Below, piece by piece: positions 141-36,042 of a stretch of 43,647 bases of DNA. A model generated the notes under the pieces. The model was given only the letters and a program-made list of their open reading frames with translations. It was not told the DNA's origin and did no database searches. Both the position numbers and the translations under genes were made by a program. This DNA is from an uncultured Candidatus Saccharibacteria bacterium (lineage in GTDB: Bacteria; Patescibacteriota; Minisyncoccia; UBA6257; GWB1-50-10), in the NCBI GenBank assembly GCA_964639325.1, contig CAZXDO010000024.1:1-43647 (forward strand), written 5' to 3'. Each line of letters opens with the position of its first letter. Position 1 is the stretch's first letter.

Positions 141-410
141 TGGCTCCGGGGGCCGGATTCGAACCGGCAACCTTCTCCTTACATGTAACCCTCCTGTTAC
201 CAAGAGGCATGGACTATCTCATCACCATATTCTAGAAAGAACTTAGGTGCCGGGCGCTATAAGTCTCTGCACCTTCCCCAATAAAATCAGGGCTTGGCTC
301 AGGATTGCCCCAGTAGGGTTTCCCTGAATTCACCCGGTGTTTCAACCGTGATTTCTCACAGAAGCTGCCGTTTAGGACAGGGAGTCGCACTACCATTGTG
401 CTACCCCGGA
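141..410 (-). tRNA. tRNA-Asn(GUU) interrupted by a group I intron (exon 1 = 377-410, exon 2 = 141-181)
   Basis: The joined exons give a 75-nt cloverleaf. Acceptor TCCGGGG/CCCCGGA (U1-A72), G73, encoded CCA. D arm GCAC-AATGGTA-GTGC. Anticodon loop CUGUUAA. T arm GCCGG-TTCGAAT-CCGGC. Confidence 0.8.
182..376 (-). ncRNA. Group I (IC3-like) intron, 195 nt, no ORF
   Basis: Core strings match those I recall from the cyanobacterial tRNA-Leu intron: UCAGGGAAACC, GGCAAUCCUGAGCCAAGCC, GGAAGGUGCAGAGACU, AGUCCA. P1 has a U.G wobble at the 5' splice site. P2 is CUGUGA-GAAA-UCACGG. The terminal base is G. Confidence 0.8.
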
Positions 411-446: not shown

Positions 447-617
447 TCCGAGCTGCCCCGGAGCAAACTTTGTTTACCCCGGAATACTTTTCAATTGTAT
501 CAACTTTCCTTTCATTTTCAAGTCCTAATACATCCTTGGGAGGTAGCAACATCCAAGTTTAATAAACTCTTCAACTTGGGGAGGATTAACATCCTATATT
601 CTAAAAAGATTTTAATA

Positions 618-656: not shown

Positions 657-731
657 CCCCCCATAGCTCAATTTGGCAGAGCAGCTCCCTTTTAAGGAGA
701 AGGTTTCTAGGTTCGAGGCCTAGTGGGGGGA
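657..731 (+). tRNA. tRNA-Lys(UUU), CCA not encoded
   Basis: Acceptor CCCCCCA/TGGGGGG. U8, D arm GCTC-AATTTGGCA-GAGC. Anticodon loop CTTTTAA. T arm CTAGG-TTCGAGG-CCTAG. Discriminator A. The variable loop is 6 nt and there is a 27:43 mismatch. Confidence 0.8.
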
Positions 732-733
732 CA

Positions 734-1597
734 ATGAATAAAACTCCCGAATATCTCATACAAAAATGCCGCTCTTTAAGAAGGAAAAGTATTCCTTTGA
801 AAAAGATAATGGAAGAAACGGGACTACCTAAAACCACTGTCTATGGATATATATACGACATTCCCCGATCTCCCCATTTTGAAAGAAAAATAATAAAAGA
901 ATCAACAGAAAGAATAATAAAATTCAATAAATCCAGGAAAGGTAAAAGCGCTTTAAACCGCCACCCTATTGAATTTAATGAATGGAACCCACAGCTTGTT
1001 ATGCTTGTGGGTCATTTTATTTTTGATGGAGAAATAAAGAAAAATGGTTGCATCTACAATAATAGAAGCAAAAAATTAATAAGAAGGGTAAAAAAATTAA
1101 CAAAGTATGTATATAAATACCCTCCCAAAGAAATGATAAATGAAAAATCAGGAGTTATTACAATATCATACTTTAATGTAGAGCTTTCTAAGCTAATTAA
1201 CCAAAGATCAAAAGAATTGATAGAATACATAAAATCAGCACCAAAAGAACACAAACGAATTTTCTTAAAATCTTTTTTCGACGATGAAGGGTGTATCAGT
1301 TTTTACAATAATACGAATAGAAAGGTTAAGGGCTATCAGTATAAAATTGAAATATTAAAACTAATTCAAAGCCTCCTTCTAGATTTTAAAATCAAAAGCA
1401 CTATTGAAAATCAACAAAGAGAAATAGTAATAAGAAGAAAAGAAAATTTAAAGAAGTTTCAAAAAGAGATAAATTTCTCCAAAGGTATTTATATGAACCC
1501 AAACCGGAAAAACAGCGTTTGGAAAAGAAAATTGGAAAAAAGAGAAATATTAAAAAACGCCATTAATTCATATCAAAACCTCAACCGGACATATTGA
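734..1597 (+). CDS. Free-standing LAGLIDADG homing endonuclease (two motifs) with N-terminal helix-turn-helix
   Basis: Motif 1 is LVMLVGHFIFDGEI and motif 2 is IFLKSFFDDEGCI. The N-terminus has an HTH-like segment, IPLKKIMEETGLPKTTVYGYI. TGA stop, followed by a terminator hairpin. Confidence 0.8.
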   Translation: MNKTPEYLIQKCRSLRRKSIPLKKIMEETGLPKTTVYGYIYDIPRSPHFERKIIKESTERIIKFNKSRKGKSALNRHPIEFNEWNPQLVMLVGHFIFDGEIKKNGCIYNNRSKKLIRRVKKLTKYVYKYPPKEMINEKSGVITISYFNVELSKLINQRSKELIEYIKSAPKEHKRIFLKSFFDDEGCISFYNNTNRKVKGYQYKIEILKLIQSLLLDFKIKSTIENQQREIVIRRKENLKKFQKEINFSKGIYMNPNRKNSVWKRKLEKREILKNAINSYQNLNRTY

Positions 1598-22323: not shown

Positions 22324-25300
22324 ATGAACAAATTTACTCACTTACACGTACACTCCCATTACTCCATGTTAGATGGGCTGTCAAAAATTGAAGATATTGT
22401 TAAAAAAACTAAAGAACATGGAATGAAAGCCGTGGCCTTAACCGACCACGGTAACCTCTATGGTGCTATCGAATTTTATAAAAAAGCAAAAGCGGAAAAC
22501 ATCAAGCCAATTATGGGTCTTGAAGCGTATTACGCTCCGGAAAGCCGGAAAAAAAAGGATAAAACAAGTAGAAACCGCTACCACCTCACTCTTTTGGCAA
22601 AAAACAATACCGGCTGGAAAAACCTTCTTCAACTAGTTACCATATCAAACCTTGAAGGCTTTTATTACAAACCCCGCATTGACGACGAACTCCTTGAAAA
22701 ATATCACGAAGGGTTAATCTGTCTTTCCGGATGTATTTCCGGAGAAATTCCTTCTCTTGTTAAAAAGGAAAAAAAAGAAAAAGCAGAAAAAAGAGCAAAA
22801 TGGTTTAAATCCTTGTTCGGTGACGATTATTACATAGAACTCCAGAAAAACTATTCCGAACTTCATGAGGAATTGAAAAAACTTGCCAAGAAAATAGGTA
22901 GTAAAGTAGTGGCTACACAAGATTCCCATTACATTAATAAAGAAGATAAAGACGCCCACGAAATTCTTCTTGCCGTCCAAACAAAAAATGTAATTGAAAG
23001 TGATGATAGAATGTCCCTAAAAGATTTTGACCTTCATTTTGCCTCTACTGAAGAAATGACTGAATATTTCAAAGACACTCCGGAAGCAATAAAAACAACA
23101 GAAGAAATTGTTGATAAATGTAATGTTGAAATAAAACTTGGAGAAAACAAAATTCCTAAATTTGAAACACCAAATGGAGAAACTACCCAAGAATATCTTA
23201 CCAAACTAGCCAAAGAAGGGCTTTCTAAAAGATATGAAAAAGTTACTCCGGAGATTAAAGATCGCCTTAAAGCTGAGCTGGAAGTTATTAAAAAAACCGG
23301 CTTCGCCGATTACTTCTTAATCGTCCAAGATTTTGTCCAATGGGCTAAAAAAAGAGACATTGTGGTCGGTCCGGGAAGGGGTTCGGCTGCCGGAAGTTTA
23401 GTTTCTTACTCTATCGGCATTACCAATATTGACCCACTAAAATACGACCTCCTTTTTGAAAGATTTTTAAACCCTGAAAGGGTTCAAGTTCCCGATATTG
23501 ATATTGATTTTACTGATACAAGACGCGATGAAGTTATTGCTTACGTCCGTGAAAAATACGGCCAAAAAAACGTAGCTCAAATCATTACCTTTGGAACTAT
23601 GGCTGCTAGAGCTGCTATTCGTGATACCGGACGGGCCCTGGGATATTCATACGGATTTTGTGACAGAGTAGCCAAACTTATCCCCTTCCAAACAAACATC
23701 AAAGAAGCTCTTGATTCGGTTGATGAGCTTAAAGAAATGTACGAAACCGAAGAACAAGTTAAAAAATTAATTGACTCGGCCCTAAAACTGGAAGGAGTTG
23801 TCCGCCATGCTTCAGTTCATGCCTGCGGAGTAGTAATTTCTCCTAAACCCCTTCCCAACTATGTTCCTCTCCAAAAAGCTCCCCAAGGAGAAGACGCTAT
23901 TATTACCCAATTTGAAATGCATAGCGTGGAAGATCTCGGTATCCTTAAAATGGACTTTTTAGGACTCAAAAACCTCACTATTATAGAAGAAACTCTCCAA
24001 AGCATAAAAGAACAGCACAACAAAGAGATAGATATCAATAAAATACCTCTGGACGACAGAAAGACTTATCGACTCCTTCAAAAAGGTTTAACCGTAGGTG
24101 TTTTTCAGTTGGAAGGCCAAGGTATGCAACGTTATCTCAAAAAACTTCTCCCTTCTGAATTTGAAGACATTATCGCCATGGTTTCCCTTTATCGTCCCGG
24201 ACCCATGGAACTTATCCCTCACTACATAAAAAGGAAGTTTGGTGAAGAAAATGTTACTTTTCTTCATCCTAAACTTGAACCAATTCTCTCCCCTACTTAT
24301 GGCATAGGAATTTACCAAGAACAAATGATGAGAATAGCCCGAAACCTGGCCGGATATTCTCTTGGAGAGGCCGATGTTCTTCGAAAAGCGATTGGTAAAA
24401 AAATAAAATCACTCCTTGATAAGCAAAAAGTAAAACTTATAGAAGGAATGATAAAAAACGGCATTGAAGAAAAAACCGCTAAAAAAATATGGGACCTCTT
24501 TCCTCCCTTCGCCCGTTATGGTTTTAACAGATGTTTAACAGGGGATACTAAAATATACAACCCGGAAACCGGCAGTTTGGATGAAATAAAGGAAATCCAC
24601 CGGAAAGGAAAAGGGACGGTAGCCTCCATAAAAGAAAACTTTAAACTCGCAAAATACCCTGCTACCAAAACCTACTACAACGGAAAAAAGAAAGTTTGGA
24701 AAATAACTACCAAAAGTGGAAGAGAGATAACCGCTACCCCCAACCACCCCTTCTATACCGAAAGCGGCTGGCAAAATCTTGAAAACATAAAGGAAGGCGA
24801 TCGCCTTGCCGTCCCCCGCACACTTCCCGAACCAAAAAAGACAAAACCGGTAAAAAAACACAAACTTGCTCTTCTCGGCTACCTTATAGCAGAAGGGAAT
24901 CTCTGTCACCCCCACGGATTTTACTTCTACTCCAAAGAGGAAAACGAAATAAAGGACTATATTAAAAACCTGGAGAAATTCAAAAACACTGTTGGAAGAA
25001 TAGACCGAAGCAAATCCGCTGCCTCAGTCTACTCTAAAAGAAAGAATGTAAAAGAAAAATCGGAAGCCGTTGAATGGATTAATTCTCTGAGCATTAAAAA
25101 CAAAATTGCCATTGAAAAGAAATTCCCTGACTTTGTTTTTAACCTTTCCAACAAAGACCTTTCTATCTTAATCAGCAAAATGTTCCAAGGCGACGGATGC
25201 ATAAATAACAAGCGAGATCCTCAAATATTCTACGCCACCTCCTCAAAAAAACTGGCTAAAGAGCTCCAACACCTCCTTCTCCGTTTTAATATTCTCTCCA

Positions 25301-26757
25301 CTATCCACCAAAAAAATTTCAAATACCGGGAGGAGATAAAAAAAGGCTACACCGTAACCATCTCCCGCTACAACAACATTGAAAAGTTCATCAACGCCTT
25401 CAGTAAGCATTTCGTAGGCGAAAAGAAAAAAACATCCAAAAAAATCTTAAAAAAACATCCTATTATAAATAAAAAAATAAAAACCTGGTCCGCCAGAGGC
25501 AGTTTTGATACAATCCCTGTTTCCCTGGTCTTAAATGAAATCCGGGAGGTTGTAAAAACAAAAGCAGGTTCCTTTCGAAGTTTTTCAAATGAAACCGGCA
25601 TTTCCTGGCGCCTCTTTATGAAAGATAAAAAGAAAAAAGGATATCTAAGGGAAACTATCAACGAAATAGCGGAAAAAACCAGAAACGAAAATCTCTATAA
25701 TCACGCTCAATCAGACATCTATTGGGACAAAGTAGCAAAAATAGAATACGCAGGAGTCGAAGACACCTATGATCTTACTATCCCTAAAACCCACAACTTT
25801 GTAGCCAACGATATAATTTCCCACAACTCCCATGCCGCTTCCTACGCTACTATTGCCTACCAAACCGCTTACCTCAAAGCCCGCTACCCAATTGAGTTTA
25901 CCACTGCCCTCCTAAATGTTTCCGGTAATGATATTGAAAGAATAAGTTTTCTCATCGGTGAGTCGCGCCGCTTGGGCATTGAAGTTCTTCCTCCGGATAT
26001 AAACCAAAGCTATCGCAACTTTACCATAGACGAGGAAAATATCCGCTTTGGCCTTCTTGCCGTCAAAAACATCGGCGGAAATATTGCTGATGCAATAATA
26101 GCAAAAAGAAGAGAAGGAGGTCCCTACCAAAACATCTCTGACTTTCTTTCCCGCGTCCACCATCATGATTTAAACAAAAAATCACTAGAGAGTTTAATAA
26201 AATGCGGAGCCTTTGATAATTTTGAAAGCGACAGAGGAAAGCTCCTTGCCAATATAGAAGAAATGCTTAGATTTAAAGAAGCTGTCAGAAAAAAGATGGA
26301 TAGTAATCAAGGAGATCTTTTTGGTAAAAAATCATCAATTACTCTTAAACTTAAACCGGCTAGAGAAAAGGTTGATAAAAATAAAATTCTAGCTTGGGAA
26401 AAAGAACTTTTAGGTCTCTACCTTACCGACCACCCTTTTATTAAATACAAAAACAAACTTTCAAGCTGGGTAAAACCAATAGGAGAAATAACCCAAAATG
26501 GTGCCGGCGGAAGCAAGTATTATATAACGGCAGGACTTATTTCTTCCGTTAAAAAAATACTTACCAAAAACGGAAAACTTATGCTTTTTGTAAAACTTGA
26601 AGATGAAAAAGATTCTATCGAAATACTTGTTTTTAATAATACCTTTCAAGAAAACAGCAAAGTTTGGGAAGAAAATAAAATAGTCCTTGTAAAAGGAAAA
26701 TTATCAAGCCGAGATAACGACCCTAAACTTATCTGTAATCAAGTTAAGGAACTTTAA
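22324..26757 (+). CDS. dnaE: DNA polymerase III alpha subunit (DnaE) containing an intein
   Basis: PHP motif HLHVHSHYSMLDG, GPGRGSAAGS, PDIDIDF. The FARYGFNR / SHAASYA motif is split by 432 aa. Confidence 0.92.
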   Translation: MNKFTHLHVHSHYSMLDGLSKIEDIVKKTKEHGMKAVALTDHGNLYGAIEFYKKAKAENIKPIMGLEAYYAPESRKKKDKTSRNRYHLTLLAKNNTGWKNLLQLVTISNLEGFYYKPRIDDELLEKYHEGLICLSGCISGEIPSLVKKEKKEKAEKRAKWFKSLFGDDYYIELQKNYSELHEELKKLAKKIGSKVVATQDSHYINKEDKDAHEILLAVQTKNVIESDDRMSLKDFDLHFASTEEMTEYFKDTPEAIKTTEEIVDKCNVEIKLGENKIPKFETPNGETTQEYLTKLAKEGLSKRYEKVTPEIKDRLKAELEVIKKTGFADYFLIVQDFVQWAKKRDIVVGPGRGSAAGSLVSYSIGITNIDPLKYDLLFERFLNPERVQVPDIDIDFTDTRRDEVIAYVREKYGQKNVAQIITFGTMAARAAIRDTGRALGYSYGFCDRVAKLIPFQTNIKEALDSVDELKEMYETEEQVKKLIDSALKLEGVVRHASVHACGVVISPKPLPNYVPLQKAPQGEDAIITQFEMHSVEDLGILKMDFLGLKNLTIIEETLQSIKEQHNKEIDINKIPLDDRKTYRLLQKGLTVGVFQLEGQGMQRYLKKLLPSEFEDIIAMVSLYRPGPMELIPHYIKRKFGEENVTFLHPKLEPILSPTYGIGIYQEQMMRIARNLAGYSLGEADVLRKAIGKKIKSLLDKQKVKLIEGMIKNGIEEKTAKKIWDLFPPFARYGFNRCLTGDTKIYNPETGSLDEIKEIHRKGKGTVASIKENFKLAKYPATKTYYNGKKKVWKITTKSGREITATPNHPFYTESGWQNLENIKEGDRLAVPRTLPEPKKTKPVKKHKLALLGYLIAEGNLCHPHGFYFYSKEENEIKDYIKNLEKFKNTVGRIDRSKSAASVYSKRKNVKEKSEAVEWINSLSIKNKIAIEKKFPDFVFNLSNKDLSILISKMFQGDGCINNKRDPQIFYATSSKKLAKELQHLLLRFNILSTIHQKNFKYREEIKKGYTVTISRYNNIEKFINAFSKHFVGEKKKTSKKILKKHPIINKKIKTWSARGSFDTIPVSLVLNEIREVVKTKAGSFRSFSNETGISWRLFMKDKKKKGYLRETINEIAEKTRNENLYNHAQSDIYWDKVAKIEYAGVEDTYDLTIPKTHNFVANDIISHNSHAASYATIAYQTAYLKARYPIEFTTALLNVSGNDIERISFLIGESRRLGIEVLPPDINQSYRNFTIDEENIRFGLLAVKNIGGNIADAIIAKRREGGPYQNISDFLSRVHHHDLNKKSLESLIKCGAFDNFESDRGKLLANIEEMLRFKEAVRKKMDSNQGDLFGKKSSITLKLKPAREKVDKNKILAWEKELLGLYLTDHPFIKYKNKLSSWVKPIGEITQNGAGGSKYYITAGLISSVKKILTKNGKLMLFVKLEDEKDSIEILVFNNTFQENSKVWEENKIVLVKGKLSSRDNDPKLICNQVKEL
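24532..25827 (+). mobile_element. DnaE intein (432 aa) with a LAGLIDADG homing endonuclease domain
   Basis: Starts CLTGDTKIY. Block B is TATPNHPFY. LAGLIDADG motifs LALLGYLIAEGN and LISKMFQGDGCI. Ends THNFVANDIISHN, followed by +1 Ser. Confidence 0.9.
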
Positions 26758-32612: not shown

Positions 32613-35600
32613 TTATATATCCAAATTTTTAACTCCTTTAGCGTGAGCTTGAATAAATTTCTTTCTTGGAGCCACCTCTTCTCCCATTAATACATCAAAA
32701 AGGTTGTCTGCTTCAGCAGCGTCTTTAACTGTTACCCTTTTCAAAACTCTATTTTCCGGATTCATGGTAGTTGCCCAAAGACGATCAGGATTCATCTCTC
32801 CAAGACCTTTGTATCTTTGAACATTAACATTTTTTCCCATTTCTTTAACTAACTTATCGTACTCAGCATTATTATACGCATATTCCACCTTTTTACCCTT
32901 ATTTAATTGATAAAGTGGGGGTTGAGCAATGTAAAGATAACCTTGTTCAATGATTTCCCTGAAATAACGATAGAAAAGAGTTAAAAGAAGGGTTCTAATA
33001 TGAGCTCCATCTACATCGGCGTCAGTCATAATTATGACTTTATGGTACCTAAGCTTAGAAACATCAAATTCTTCTCCTATAGCCGTACCAAGGGCTATAA
33101 TCAAAGCTCTTATTTCTTTATTTTTTAACATTCTATCGATTCTCGCTTTTTCCACATTTAATATTTTACCCCGAAGAGGCAATATTGCCTGTGTTTTCTT
33201 ATCTCTCCCTCCCTTGGCACTATTATGAACAAATACTCCAGACGATAAGGCAAAGTTATGAGTTTTTTCTACCTCTAAATCGTAAACATCTATTTTCTCA
33301 TGTATTCTTTTGATTCCGACAACTCTATGGTTGTAATTTACAACAGCCTCTTTCATCTTTCTGTCATTGTTTCCAAAAAACCTATTTCTTATGGTTTCAT
33401 ACCTAATCAAACTCTTATCATTAGATTCTCTTCTTAATCTATTATATTCTCCTATATCAATCTTCTTTTTCTCAAGATAAATATCATGAAGAACTTTCAA
33501 AGCTTTATTCATATAGGTAAGGTTGTAAGCTTCTTTCCTTTTCTTTCTAAAGTCAGAAGTCCATTGATCTTTTGTTTTTTTTGATCGCCAGTTTCTAAGT
33601 TGCGAATCACCCCACTGTTTTTTTGCTATTTTAGATAACTCTTCTATTTTATCAGGATTATTTTTAAAATACTCCGAAACTCTTTTTGATTGCTTGTTTC
33701 TATTTTTTAAATCTGACCAATATCTTTTTTGTTCCTTGTATAATCTACTTTCAGATTCTTTTCTATATTTTTCGTTAGAATAATAAAATTCCAAAAACTT
33801 TTTCACCATATAATTCTTATACTCAACACTCTCCCACTGTTTTTTTGCCCTCTTACTTAATATCTTTTTCATTTCAGGGGTAGTCATCACTTTTCTAATT
33901 TTCTCTCTAAATTCCAATGTCTTCCTTATTTCCCTAAGCTTTTTCCTAACATCAGGCCTGTTCAAAGTCATCTTAGCCATCTCACGATGAAGGTTTATAT
34001 GCTCATCCTTATTCATTCTAACCAAATTATCAGGATTATTATTTAACTTATTAAAGTCCTTATGGTGTACATGAGAATTAACTATCTTTTTATAAACACC
34101 ATTATCTAAGTTACACTTATCACTCAAAAGGTGGGTAAATATCCATTTGTTTATCTTGGAATCAAAAACCATTTCATAACCTTCTATTGTTATTCCTCCT
34201 CCTTTTTCAGAAAGTTTTTTTCTAAAAGGCATAAGAGAATCATTTTTGGTTAGAGTTTCAGCTTTTTTATAACTACCATCTCTAAGCATAAATAAGTGGT
34301 CGGGAGTACATTTAATCTTCTTTCCGTTATCAAGCGTCACTTCCACCACTTCCACATTTTTCTTAGTTACTCTAGGGTTTTTTATAGGAGCTATTCCTAT
34401 ATTTCCGTTTTCTTTTATCGTATAACAATAATTTTTCTTATTATTCCTTGCTTCTTTAAATAAATCTTTAAAACTAACATTCCGGCCATCGACAAGGGCT
34501 ACTTCAGTATCACCAGAAAAACATCCACCGGCGCTGTCGCCCTCCACTATGAAAAGCTCTGATTCTTCTGGTTTTCTAGAAATACAATCAGCTAATTTTC
34601 CGGGAAGGGATAATCCCTCAAGAGCTCCTTTCCTTAAAACAGTATCTTTAGCTGCTTTAGCCGCCTTTCTAGCCTTAGCCGCCAAAAGATTTTTTTCCAA
34701 AATTCTCTTAGCATCATTTGAGTATCTCTCCAAAAATTCGCTTAAAGCTTCATTAACCACGGTTTCTACCGCACTTCTTGCTTCCGGGTTACCTAACCTA
34801 GCTTTGGTTTGCCCTTCAAACTGAGGTTCGTGGGGAGCACTTAACTTTACCGAAACAGCAGCTACTATTCCCTCCCTGACATCCTCTCCCGTCAAATTAC
34901 TATCAGAATCCTTCAAAAAACCTTCCTTTCTGGCATAATCGTTAAGGGTTCTAGTAAGGGCAGAACGAAAACCGGTAAGGTGCATACCTCCATCTGCGGT
35001 ATAAATATTATTAGCAAACGTGTGCTCTTCACTTTCAACATCATCGGTATAGGAAAAAGTCGCTTCAATATCAACACTATTTTCCTCTTTATGAATATAA
35101 AAGGGATGGTCATGAATAGGGTTGGAATTTCCAATTAAGTAAGTGAGATAAGATTTTAACCCTCCTTCAAAATAAAAAGCATAAGAATTATCCTTCTCGC
35201 CTCTCTTGTCTAAAATATCAATTCGTAAACCTTTAGTTAAATAAGCCTGCTGTCTCAAATGGTTTACGATAAGATTAAAATTAAAACTGCCGCCGCCTGT
35301 AAAAATTTCTGGATCCGGTTTAAAAGAAACAGTAGTACCATTTCTCTCACATTTCCCTTGTTTTTTAACGTTGCTTTTTGGCTTGCCTCTTTCATATTCT
35401 TGCACGTACCTATTTCCCTCTAAGCAAACCTCAGCTTTCAACCATAAAGAAAGAGCATTTACAACAGAAACACCCACTCCGTGTAATCCTCCGGATACTT
35501 TATAAGACTCACCGCCAAATTTACCTCCGGCGTGGAGGGTGGTCATTACTGTTTCTAAAGCAGATTTTCCGCTTTGTTTATGTTTTTCTACCGGAATCCC

Positions 35601-35855
35601 CCGACCATCATCAGTTACTCTCACTTCATTATCAGGCAAAAGCTCAACTAAAATATTTGTAGCATAGCCCGCCATTGCTTCGTCTATAGAGTTGTCAATA
35701 ACCTCCCAAATAAGATGATGAAGACCATCTGGGCCGGTCGATCCGATATACATTCCCGGCCTTTTTCTTACAGGATCAAGGCCCTCGAGTATGTAAATAT
35801 CTTCTGCTCCATAATCAGATTTTTTAACATTTTTCTTGTTTTTTTTATCTGCCAT
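32613..35855 (-). CDS. gyrB: DNA gyrase subunit B containing an intein
   Basis: GLHHLIWEVIDNSIDE, and the Toprim motif EGDSAGG / SAKGGRD split by 434 aa. PLRGKILNVE. The ATG at 35855 is preferred over the TTG at 35864. Confidence 0.92.
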   Translation of the reverse strand: MADKKNKKNVKKSDYGAEDIYILEGLDPVRKRPGMYIGSTGPDGLHHLIWEVIDNSIDEAMAGYATNILVELLPDNEVRVTDDGRGIPVEKHKQSGKSALETVMTTLHAGGKFGGESYKVSGGLHGVGVSVVNALSLWLKAEVCLEGNRYVQEYERGKPKSNVKKQGKCERNGTTVSFKPDPEIFTGGGSFNFNLIVNHLRQQAYLTKGLRIDILDKRGEKDNSYAFYFEGGLKSYLTYLIGNSNPIHDHPFYIHKEENSVDIEATFSYTDDVESEEHTFANNIYTADGGMHLTGFRSALTRTLNDYARKEGFLKDSDSNLTGEDVREGIVAAVSVKLSAPHEPQFEGQTKARLGNPEARSAVETVVNEALSEFLERYSNDAKRILEKNLLAAKARKAAKAAKDTVLRKGALEGLSLPGKLADCISRKPEESELFIVEGDSAGGCFSGDTEVALVDGRNVSFKDLFKEARNNKKNYCYTIKENGNIGIAPIKNPRVTKKNVEVVEVTLDNGKKIKCTPDHLFMLRDGSYKKAETLTKNDSLMPFRKKLSEKGGGITIEGYEMVFDSKINKWIFTHLLSDKCNLDNGVYKKIVNSHVHHKDFNKLNNNPDNLVRMNKDEHINLHREMAKMTLNRPDVRKKLREIRKTLEFREKIRKVMTTPEMKKILSKRAKKQWESVEYKNYMVKKFLEFYYSNEKYRKESESRLYKEQKRYWSDLKNRNKQSKRVSEYFKNNPDKIEELSKIAKKQWGDSQLRNWRSKKTKDQWTSDFRKKRKEAYNLTYMNKALKVLHDIYLEKKKIDIGEYNRLRRESNDKSLIRYETIRNRFFGNNDRKMKEAVVNYNHRVVGIKRIHEKIDVYDLEVEKTHNFALSSGVFVHNSAKGGRDKKTQAILPLRGKILNVEKARIDRMLKNKEIRALIIALGTAIGEEFDVSKLRYHKVIIMTDADVDGAHIRTLLLTLFYRYFREIIEQGYLYIAQPPLYQLNKGKKVEYAYNNAEYDKLVKEMGKNVNVQRYKGLGEMNPDRLWATTMNPENRVLKRVTVKDAAEADNLFDVLMGEEVAPRKKFIQAHAKGVKNLDI
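33222..34523 (-). mobile_element. GyrB intein (434 aa) with an HNH endonuclease domain and basic tandem repeats
   Basis: Starts CFSGDTEVALVDG. Block B is KCTPDHLFM. HNH motif HVHHKDFNKLNNNPDNLVRMNKDEHINLH. Ends THNFALSSGVFVHN, followed by +1 Ser. Confidence 0.9.
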
Positions 35856-36042
35856 ATTTATCAAAATTCTAATTTTGTTAGGAATTTAAGCCAATTATAA
35901 AACCCTTTTCAAGGGCTTTAGCATACTCTAATAATACCAAAAAATACTGCTAAAAACAACTTCCAAAAACACGTCTTTTTTAGGTAACTAGACATATTTA
36001 AATTATTAAGTTAATATGACAAAACTAACCTAAAACAAATCT

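Follow-up and report, generated by a model that had tools for sequence, protein, structure and literature searches.

The window analysed here is a contig of 43,647 nucleotides (nt) (CAZXDO010000024.1), which carries near its left end, on the minus strand, a gene for tRNA-Asn(GUU) that is split in its anticodon loop by a 195-nt group I intron without an open reading frame (ORF). On the plus strand to the right of this gene lie a tRNA-Lys(UUU) gene and the ORF of a LAGLIDADG protein, and the window further holds chromosomal genes, including those for a class II ribonucleotide reductase (RNR), ftsZ, ftsA, hisS, dnaE and gyrB. We consider it very probable that the intron is an active, self-splicing ribozyme residing in a functional and probably single-copy tRNA-Asn gene; splicing, the promoter and the single-copy status of the gene are features that we infer from the sequence.

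The Rfam model for group I introns (RF00028, Intron_gpI) matches the locus with 92.6 bits (gathering threshold 50; E=1.2e-22 over the whole window), and this intron and the neighbouring tRNA-Lys are the only RNA families that Rfam finds in the window. The span of the match (443-190) is not that of the intron: it stops 8 nt before the terminal G, and its P1 is misplaced onto an unrelated perfect 26-nt palindrome (421-446) upstream of the tRNA. The intron ends are set by the rule of a U at position -1 and a terminal G, by a strict cloverleaf mapper and by an uninterrupted orthologue in a related genome. With these ends, ARAGORN calls the joined exons as a 75-nt tRNA-Asn(gtt) with the anticodon GUU in the loop CUGU|UAA, and the joined tRNA shows a perfect acceptor stem and T arm, the discriminator G73 and an encoded CCA.

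The uninterrupted orthologue belongs to the genome L126 (GCA_964504895.1), whose RNR is 70% identical to that of the window and has a tRNA-Lys(UUU) beside it. Its tRNA-Asn(GTT) matches the joined exons in the acceptor stem, the T-stem and the junction CCCTGT|TAAGGA, the acceptor stem and the junction being those seen in exon 1 of the window. Because the uninterrupted junction is identical, it independently confirms the splice junction of the window, and it shows that some members of the lineage have the intron and others do not. The order of the genes upstream of RNR is kept in four relatives. The best named matches of the RNR protein are to Candidatus Paceibacterota, Jorgensenbacteria and Wolfebacteria at 63-71% identity (76% for the best match overall), which argues for a host from the Candidate Phyla Radiation (CPR), or Patescibacteria, and by these matches from the Paceibacterota.

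On the native sequence, ARAGORN calls only the tRNA-Lys of the contig, since the intron splits the tRNA-Asn gene. In its long-intron mode the program returns a tRNA-Val with a 179-nt intron at the locus, which we reject as a mis-call. Thus, the intron explains why the tRNA-Asn is missed by standard tRNA finders here, an effect that bears on inferences of a "missing tRNA" in reduced genomes.

The layout of exons and intron on the minus strand between 141 and 410 had been proposed in a first-pass annotation made from the letters of the window, and its statements on the sequence are all correct. The strings it quoted (UCAGGGAAACC, GGCAAUCCUGAGCCAAGCC, GGAAGGUGCAGAGACU and AGUCCA) are all found in the intron, and P1 (CUGU|C with GGCAG, including the U.G wobble), the GAAA-capped P2 and the terminal G are confirmed by their coordinates and by a check of the pairs. 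The features of the locus are collected in Table 1.

Table 1 Features of the split tRNA-Asn gene, its intron and the neighbouring genes in the window.
Feature	Position	Strand	Remarks
tRNA-Asn exon 1	377..410	-	34 nt, TCCGGGGTAGCACAATGGTAGTGCGACTCCCTGT; nt 1-35 of the tRNA; ends ...CUGU, base -1 is U35
Group I intron	182..376	-	195 nt, without ORF; starts CCTAAAC, ends ACATG
Internal guide sequence GGCAG (P1 3' strand)	365..369	-	pairs with exon CUGU and intron C1; U35.G wobble at the 5' splice site
P2 hairpin, GAAA tetraloop (352-355)	346..361	-	6/6 pairs changed on both sides across the family
P3 5' strand (331-337), J3/4, P4-P5-P6/P6a domain (271-327)	271..337	-	Rfam, model, covariation
P7 5' strand GAGACU, bulged A	262..267	-	pairs with 211-215; pseudoknot, guanosine-binding helix; invariant in 38 aligned introns
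J7/3, UAUAG	257..261	-	position of an 18-40-nt P7.1/P7.2-like hairpin region in the 58 other Asn.4 introns mapped in the genome scan
P3 3' strand CGCCCGG	250..256	-	pairs with 331-337; model and covariation
P8 with canonical 11-nt GAAA-tetraloop receptor (CCUAAG 242-247 / UAUGG 225-229)	223..249	-	
J8/7 (216-222) and P7 3' strand AGUCC (211-215)	211..222	-	invariant in the family
P9 hairpin, GUAA loop (197-200)	190..207	-	6/7 pairs covary
3' tail GUUACAUG	182..189	-	terminal G at 182
tRNA-Asn exon 2	141..181	-	41 nt; U36 to discriminator G73 and encoded CCA (141-143)
Promoter-like site TTGAAA-16-TACAAT with TG extension	494..521	-	84 nt upstream of the tRNA; consensus match only
tRNA-Lys(UUU)	657..732	+	
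LAGLIDADG ORF	734..1597	+	287 aa; starts 1 base after tRNA-Lys
dnaE	22324..26757	+	intein with LAGLIDADG domain, ~aa 754-1168
gyrB	32613..35864	-	intein, ~aa 457-881

A structural model from P1 to P9, including the P7 pseudoknot, was built by hand and its pairs were verified singly on the window sequence; all 59 pairs are standard. The minimum-free-energy fold of the whole precursor gives the acceptor, D and T arms of the tRNA together with P1, P2, P3, P4, P5, P6a, P8 and P9. The periphery predicted in this way is of the IC3 type: P2 and P9 are both capped by GNRA loops (GAAA and GUAA, respectively), P8 holds an 11-nt receptor for L2, and P5 is a simple hairpin with no P5abc. It is by these peripheral features that we place the intron.

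The host tRNA and the insertion site, which the first-pass annotation took to be unfamiliar, are already catalogued. In its preprint form, the survey of Williams 2020 (bioRxiv, 10.1101/2020.01.27.920355) reports a screen of 80,413 bacterial genomes in which the tRNA/site types rise from 4 to 21, the four classical ones being Leu.3Ug, Arg.5Ug, fMet.2Ug and Ile2.5Ug, which the intron database used in its validation labels IC3. The supplementary seed alignment of that survey, from which we take both the name and the sequence, contains Pam37.Asn.4Ug, an intron of tRNA-Asn located after the fourth base of the anticodon loop, with U(-1) and a terminal G, while its seeds Tyr.4Ug and Asp.4Ug occupy the same loop position and have the same CUGU|...GCAG P1. 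The window intron meets the definition of Asn.4Ug, as it has a tRNA-Asn(GUU) host, the site 35/36, U(-1) and a terminal G at 182. It further shares with the class the P1 of CUGU with GCAG and the signature strings GGGUGAAUUC, AGCGCCCRRC and AUGAGAUAGUCC, and differs from it in the unusual CUCC/GGAG anticodon stem and GCAC/GUGC D stem of its tRNA.

We measured the spread of the class by searching GTDB genomes, one from each species, for a motif (AGCGCCCRRC, 10-40 nt, ATGAGATAGTCC) that the seeds nearest to the window have in common with it. Exons were assigned with the cloverleaf mapper, which applies the U(-1)/terminal-G rule and for which the window served as positive control, and the final joins were rechecked with ARAGORN; an earlier approach, in which exons were joined by brute force (467,877 combinations) and passed to ARAGORN, let through many spurious cloverleaves that had a long variable arm, and it was replaced. 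The results show at least 58 further loci with an intron at site 35/36 of tRNA-Asn(GTT), this being their number among the 120 loci listed. In the same list, the sequence subfamily of these introns further includes 14 introns of tRNA-Phe(GAA) after loop position 2 (200-336 nt, mostly from CPR or unnamed metagenome-assembled genomes (MAGs)) and 14 of tRNAs with a CAU anticodon after position 5, mostly from Burkholderiales; 20 of the 120 remain unmapped, and several classes counted once are probably mis-mapped. All 59 Asn joins, the window and the 58 listed, are called tRNA-Asn(gtt) by ARAGORN, and all have G73.

The hosts of the Asn introns among the loci listed belong to at least a dozen phyla. 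They include Acidobacteriota, Burkholderiales and other Proteobacteria, Cyanobacteria (Hormoscilla, Phormidium, Floridaenema), Nitrospirota, Planctomycetota, Bacteroidota, Aminicenantes, Binatia, Chloroflexota, Elusimicrobia, Margulisbacteria, Actinomycetota, Firmicutes-type MAGs and, within the CPR, Saccharibacteria and Peribacteria. Candidate routes by which introns without an ORF may spread are reverse splicing, recombination with co-conversion of the flanks, and endonucleases acting in trans. The Asn(GUU) host with its 35/36 site is thus catalogued and common across phyla, the known range of bacterial group I intron sites is unchanged, and the window intron is an unusually compact further member of the class. 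In concordance with this assignment, the best matches of the window among the mapped introns listed are all Asn.4, and among the eight Williams seeds compared the closest is Pam37.Asn.4Ug, tied with Dba165.Lys.2Ug in a comparison whose identities are inflated by cheap gap extension and serve for ranking only. The matches for group I introns in tRNA-Asn among peer-reviewed papers are organelle genome papers only, or concern cyanobacterial tRNA "introns" of 22-49 nt, which by their size are not group I ribozymes.

Based on this class, we assessed the structural model by covariation. An alignment was made of 38 Asn.4 introns of at most 262 nt, each with six exon bases, and the window model was projected onto its columns. 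Standard pairs fill 91.8% of the cells, compared with 34-44% in controls that slide the 3' partners along by 1-3 columns; changes on both sides occur in 36 of the 59 pairs, with a covariation score of 0.416 as opposed to at most 0.097, and none of 500 shuffles matched any of the observed measures. Covariation is seen at almost all pairs of P2, P6a and P9. P7 and the part of P1 that lies in the exon are constant in the alignment and are thus uninformative alone, and the window shares 63 invariant columns with the 37 other members. At the 5' end, the first base of the intron covaries with the base just 5' of GCAG, and the pair is standard in 49 of 54 Asn introns (A-U 21, C-G 11, G-C 9, U-A 6, G.U 2). 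Together, the Rfam score, the model with its foldable P3-P9 core, the covariation, the tRNA called on the joined exons and the intron-less allele in L126 bear out what the first-pass annotation had proposed, namely an intron without an ORF and with an IC3-like core between nt 35 and 36 of tRNA-Asn(GUU).

What sets the window apart within the class is its compact build. The Asn.4 introns among the loci listed (n=58) measure 220-422 nt with a median of 257, so that the window intron, at 195 nt, is the shortest. The difference can be localised to the segment that joins the 5' strand of P7 to the 3' strand of P3, which is 4 nt long in the window and 18-40 nt long (about 32 in most) in every other mapped intron listed. 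The stretch missing from the window forms one or two hairpins at the P7.1/P7.2 position in its relatives, and it is also found in the Pam37 seed and among the relatives with the AGCGCCC motif (Phe.2, Met.5 and Lys.2). Since these relatives have the hairpin region, its absence from the window is most simply read as a derived deletion.

A loss of this kind could have crippled the ribozyme, in which case the intron would be a splicing-dead relic and this copy of tRNA-Asn a pseudogene backed by an intact gene elsewhere. Three observations fit such a view: the window alone has 4 nt at the P7-P3' junction among the mapped genome-scan introns listed, its tRNA has an A27.A43 mismatch, and the known gene content is that of the 43.6-kb contig. 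We nevertheless regard it as very unlikely, because the short architecture recurs elsewhere. A scan of metagenomes for the short junction returned two further cases only, the loci L122 and L121, both in tRNA-Asn at 35/36, and columns 203-242 of the alignment are a gap in these two and the window only. L122 is a 194-nt intron (RF00028, 71.8 bits) whose tRNA has the CUCC/GGAG anticodon stem of the window, and L121 is a 230-nt intron (80.2 bits). Between the window and L122, which are 74% identical, 8 compensatory changes and a further 7 on one side only preserve the pairs; three pairs appear "broken" in P5 and P8a, where the alignment shifts helices. Compensatory changes at this identity make the short form look maintained, and it appears to be under selection and not decaying. 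Furthermore, the window intron is intact in all its core helices, in the guanosine-binding P7, in J8/7, in its terminal G and in the tetraloop and its receptor; the acceptor stem and T arm encoded by the exons are perfect, and G73 and CCA are present; and the Azoarcus intron, an established self-splicer, likewise lacks the P7-P3' hairpin in the seed alignment.

If the intron is active, as we think very probable, transcription of the split gene would start probably from the promoter-like site at 521-494. Exon CUGU and intron C1 would pair with GGCAG to form P1, whose U.G wobble lies at the splice site, the GAAA tetraloop that caps P2 would dock into the 11-nt receptor in P8, and the P3-P8 and P4-P6 domains would pack around P7. 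A free guanosine held in P7 would then attack the 5' splice site, after which the terminal G (182) would take its place and U35 would attack the 3' splice site, joining the exons into a 75-nt tRNA-Asn with G73 and the encoded CCA. The intron itself would be a minimised derivative, reduced to 195 nt by the loss of the P7-P3' hairpin region.

Several points weigh against this reading. The z-score of the precursor fold is modest (-2.08), and the 3' exon offers no convincing P10. The structural model was taken from the window, which is itself part of the alignment, so that the unslid register is favoured in the covariation measures. The A27.A43 mismatch tops the anticodon stem of the tRNA-Asn. No second tRNA-Asn is found in the 43.6-kb contig, a count that covers this contig alone, and an intact second copy elsewhere is possible. 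Finally, in the searchable literature we found neither transcript or splicing data for any Asn.4 intron nor a peer-reviewed description of one.

The size of the intron has to be seen against several other small introns. To our knowledge, the Azoarcus intron is the smallest that has been experimentally shown to self-splice. Its length is 205 nt in the literature, and our way of counting returns the same 205 nt when applied to the Williams seed. At 195 nt, the window intron is shorter than that of Azoarcus, as the first-pass annotation had said, and its remark on the small size was overstated in the sense that 195 nt is no record among predicted introns: L122 has 194 nt, the Williams seeds Gba28.Ile2.2Ug and Wba81.Asp.4Ug have about 193 and 196 nt, and the CPR tRNA-Phe introns L105 and L077, which map cleanly, have 200-202 nt. 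A 159-nt "Ile.5" intron at L110 is a mis-mapping, with a low score and exon 1 inside P4, and was left out of the comparison. The 194-195-nt lineage would be a naturally minimised form of a well-populated class, with the L2/P8 clamp kept and one peripheral hairpin region gone. It offers a natural test of what that hairpin region contributes, in a predicted ribozyme slightly smaller than that of Azoarcus; if spliced exons were demonstrated, this lineage would represent the shortest experimentally backed natural self-splicing group I ribozyme.

Compared with the Azoarcus intron, that of the window is likewise a small, ORF-less intron of a tRNA anticodon loop with a GAAA-looped P2, the P8 receptor CCUAAG/UAUGG, a GNRA-looped P9, the core strings GAGCCAAG and GAAGGUGNAGAGACU, and a short J7/3 that has no extra hairpin (seed alignment). 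On the other hand, the Azoarcus intron has an Ile-CAU host and lies after nt 36; the window intron has a shorter P2, P5 and P6 and a total length that is 10 nt lower, its splicing is predicted from sequence, and its P3' motif AGCGCCC marks a different sequence subfamily. The IC3 intron of cyanobacterial and plastid tRNA-Leu(UAA) shares the P4-P7 core strings UCAGGGAAACC, GGCAAUCCUGAGCCAAGCC and GGAAGGUGCAGAGACU but is inserted after U34, measures typically 240-300 nt, has longer P6 and P9 regions and belongs to another lineage. The small introns Gba28.Ile2.2Ug, Wba81.Asp.4Ug, L105/L077 Phe(GAA).2 and L122 resemble that of the window in size range, in CPR or metagenome hosts and in being ORF-less. 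The Phe.2 introns L105/L077, in contrast to the window, keep the P7-P3' hairpin and have next to no P9, and the seeds for Ile2 and Asp come from sequence subfamilies different from that of the window; among the minimised CPR tRNA introns compared, only L122 shares the build of the window.

The tRNA-Asn of the window encodes its CCA (141-143), which is not the case for the uninterrupted orthologue of L126 (18737-18740) or for the split gene of L122.

The position of the LAGLIDADG gene, 320 nt from the intron-bearing tRNA, raises the question of whether the intron is autonomous. Some LAGLIDADG proteins are maturases, such as I-AniI and the bI3 maturase, and an intron that has lost a peripheral stabilising element might be functional in the cell only with a protein helper, be it such a maturase or an RNA chaperone. 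We give this view little credence. The LAGLIDADG family of the window follows tRNA-Lys(UUU) in eight of eight contexts, with or without an intron in the vicinity, and no homologue of the window protein was found at other intron loci, including L122 and L121. Moreover, the L2-P8 tetraloop/receptor clamp is the same as in the protein-independent Azoarcus ribozyme. Autonomous self-splicing thus remains the reading that we prefer.

The LAGLIDADG ORF itself has 360 homologues at E<=1e-5, with about 50% identity and about 280 aa, the named ones being from CPR. In the window and in the seven homologues examined (8/8), the gene shares its strand with a tRNA-Lys(UUU) and lies 0-23 nt 3' of it, in at least four gene neighbourhoods (loci L128-L142). 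It is absent from the closest relatives of the window (L124-L126), and in L126 the gap between RNR and tRNA-Lys is 58 nt. The tRNA-Lys alleles linked to the ORF resemble each other more closely than they do the alleles that the relatives of the window have without it; in L130, the anticodon arm and the variable loop are identical to those of the window. The gene probably encodes a free-standing homing endonuclease and settles at tRNA-Lys or in its 3' flank, and the ORF-linked tRNA-Lys alleles look like co-converted or resistant ones. The SegB endonuclease of phage T4, encoded in a tRNA gene cluster (PMC2330249), offers a loose precedent. Our literature search returned no description of this tRNA-Lys-linked family, and the window protein has no sequence match in PHROG or PDB; the family may merit a separate study. 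Taken together, the 43.6-kb contig holds four selfish elements, namely one intron, the two inteins of dnaE and gyrB, and one free-standing LAGLIDADG gene.

The anticodon arm and variable loop of the spliced tRNA-Asn (CTCCCTgTTAAGGAGAAGGTT; 169-181 and 377-384, minus strand) differ from those of the neighbouring tRNA-Lys (CTCCCTtTTAAGGAGAAGGTT; 685-705, plus strand) at nt 34 only, and the flanks of the intron in the exons, CTCCCTGT|TAAGGAGAAGGTT, accordingly equal the tRNA-Lys arm except for nt 34. In both tRNAs, position 27 is mismatched with A43. In the relatives L124-L126, the stems of tRNA-Lys are unrelated. The identity of the two arms may reflect ectopic conversion between neighbouring genes, or chance.

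This likeness would also allow a coupling of the intron, tRNA-Lys(UUU) and the LAGLIDADG gene, in which the endonuclease recognises the shared arm CTCCCTNTTAAGGAGAAGGTT and the intron either protects the Asn copy from cleavage or is mobilised in trans. The arm CTCCCTNTTAAGGAGAAGGTT is shared by tRNA-Asn and tRNA-Lys of the window and is not seen in the other genomes compared. A tblastn search found no homologue of the endonuclease near other Asn introns or intron loci, for which reason a functional link between endonuclease and intron is speculative, and we judge the coupling to be highly improbable. Collaborative homing of a free-standing endonuclease and an ORF-less intron, as described for psbA of cyanophages, finds no support here: no recurrent linkage of endonuclease and intron is seen, and the LAGLIDADG family tracks tRNA-Lys.

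The flanks of the split gene present several short sequence copies. The leader of the tRNA-Asn contains an exact 11-nt copy of the 5' end of the tRNA with its flank (ATTCCGGGGTA; 475-485 versus 402-412) and a 15-nt inverted near-copy of the 3' end of the tRNA, including CCA and flank (456-470 versus 137-151). These copies and the 26-nt palindrome may have been left by recombination, or they may represent a regulatory hairpin. Just downstream of the tRNA-Asn, three short GC-rich hairpins are clustered at 40-120 on the minus strand, in a genome of 36% GC. The fold z-score of this GC-rich 3' flank is -1.41, its sequence is not repeated elsewhere in the window, and neither the flank nor the leader has a match to a structured RNA in Rfam at E<=1. 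Within the 3' flank, a 17-nt stretch (64-80) is 88% identical to the P6 region of the intron (282-298), and a 9-mer (77-85) is complementary to the P3 3' strand of the intron (251-259).

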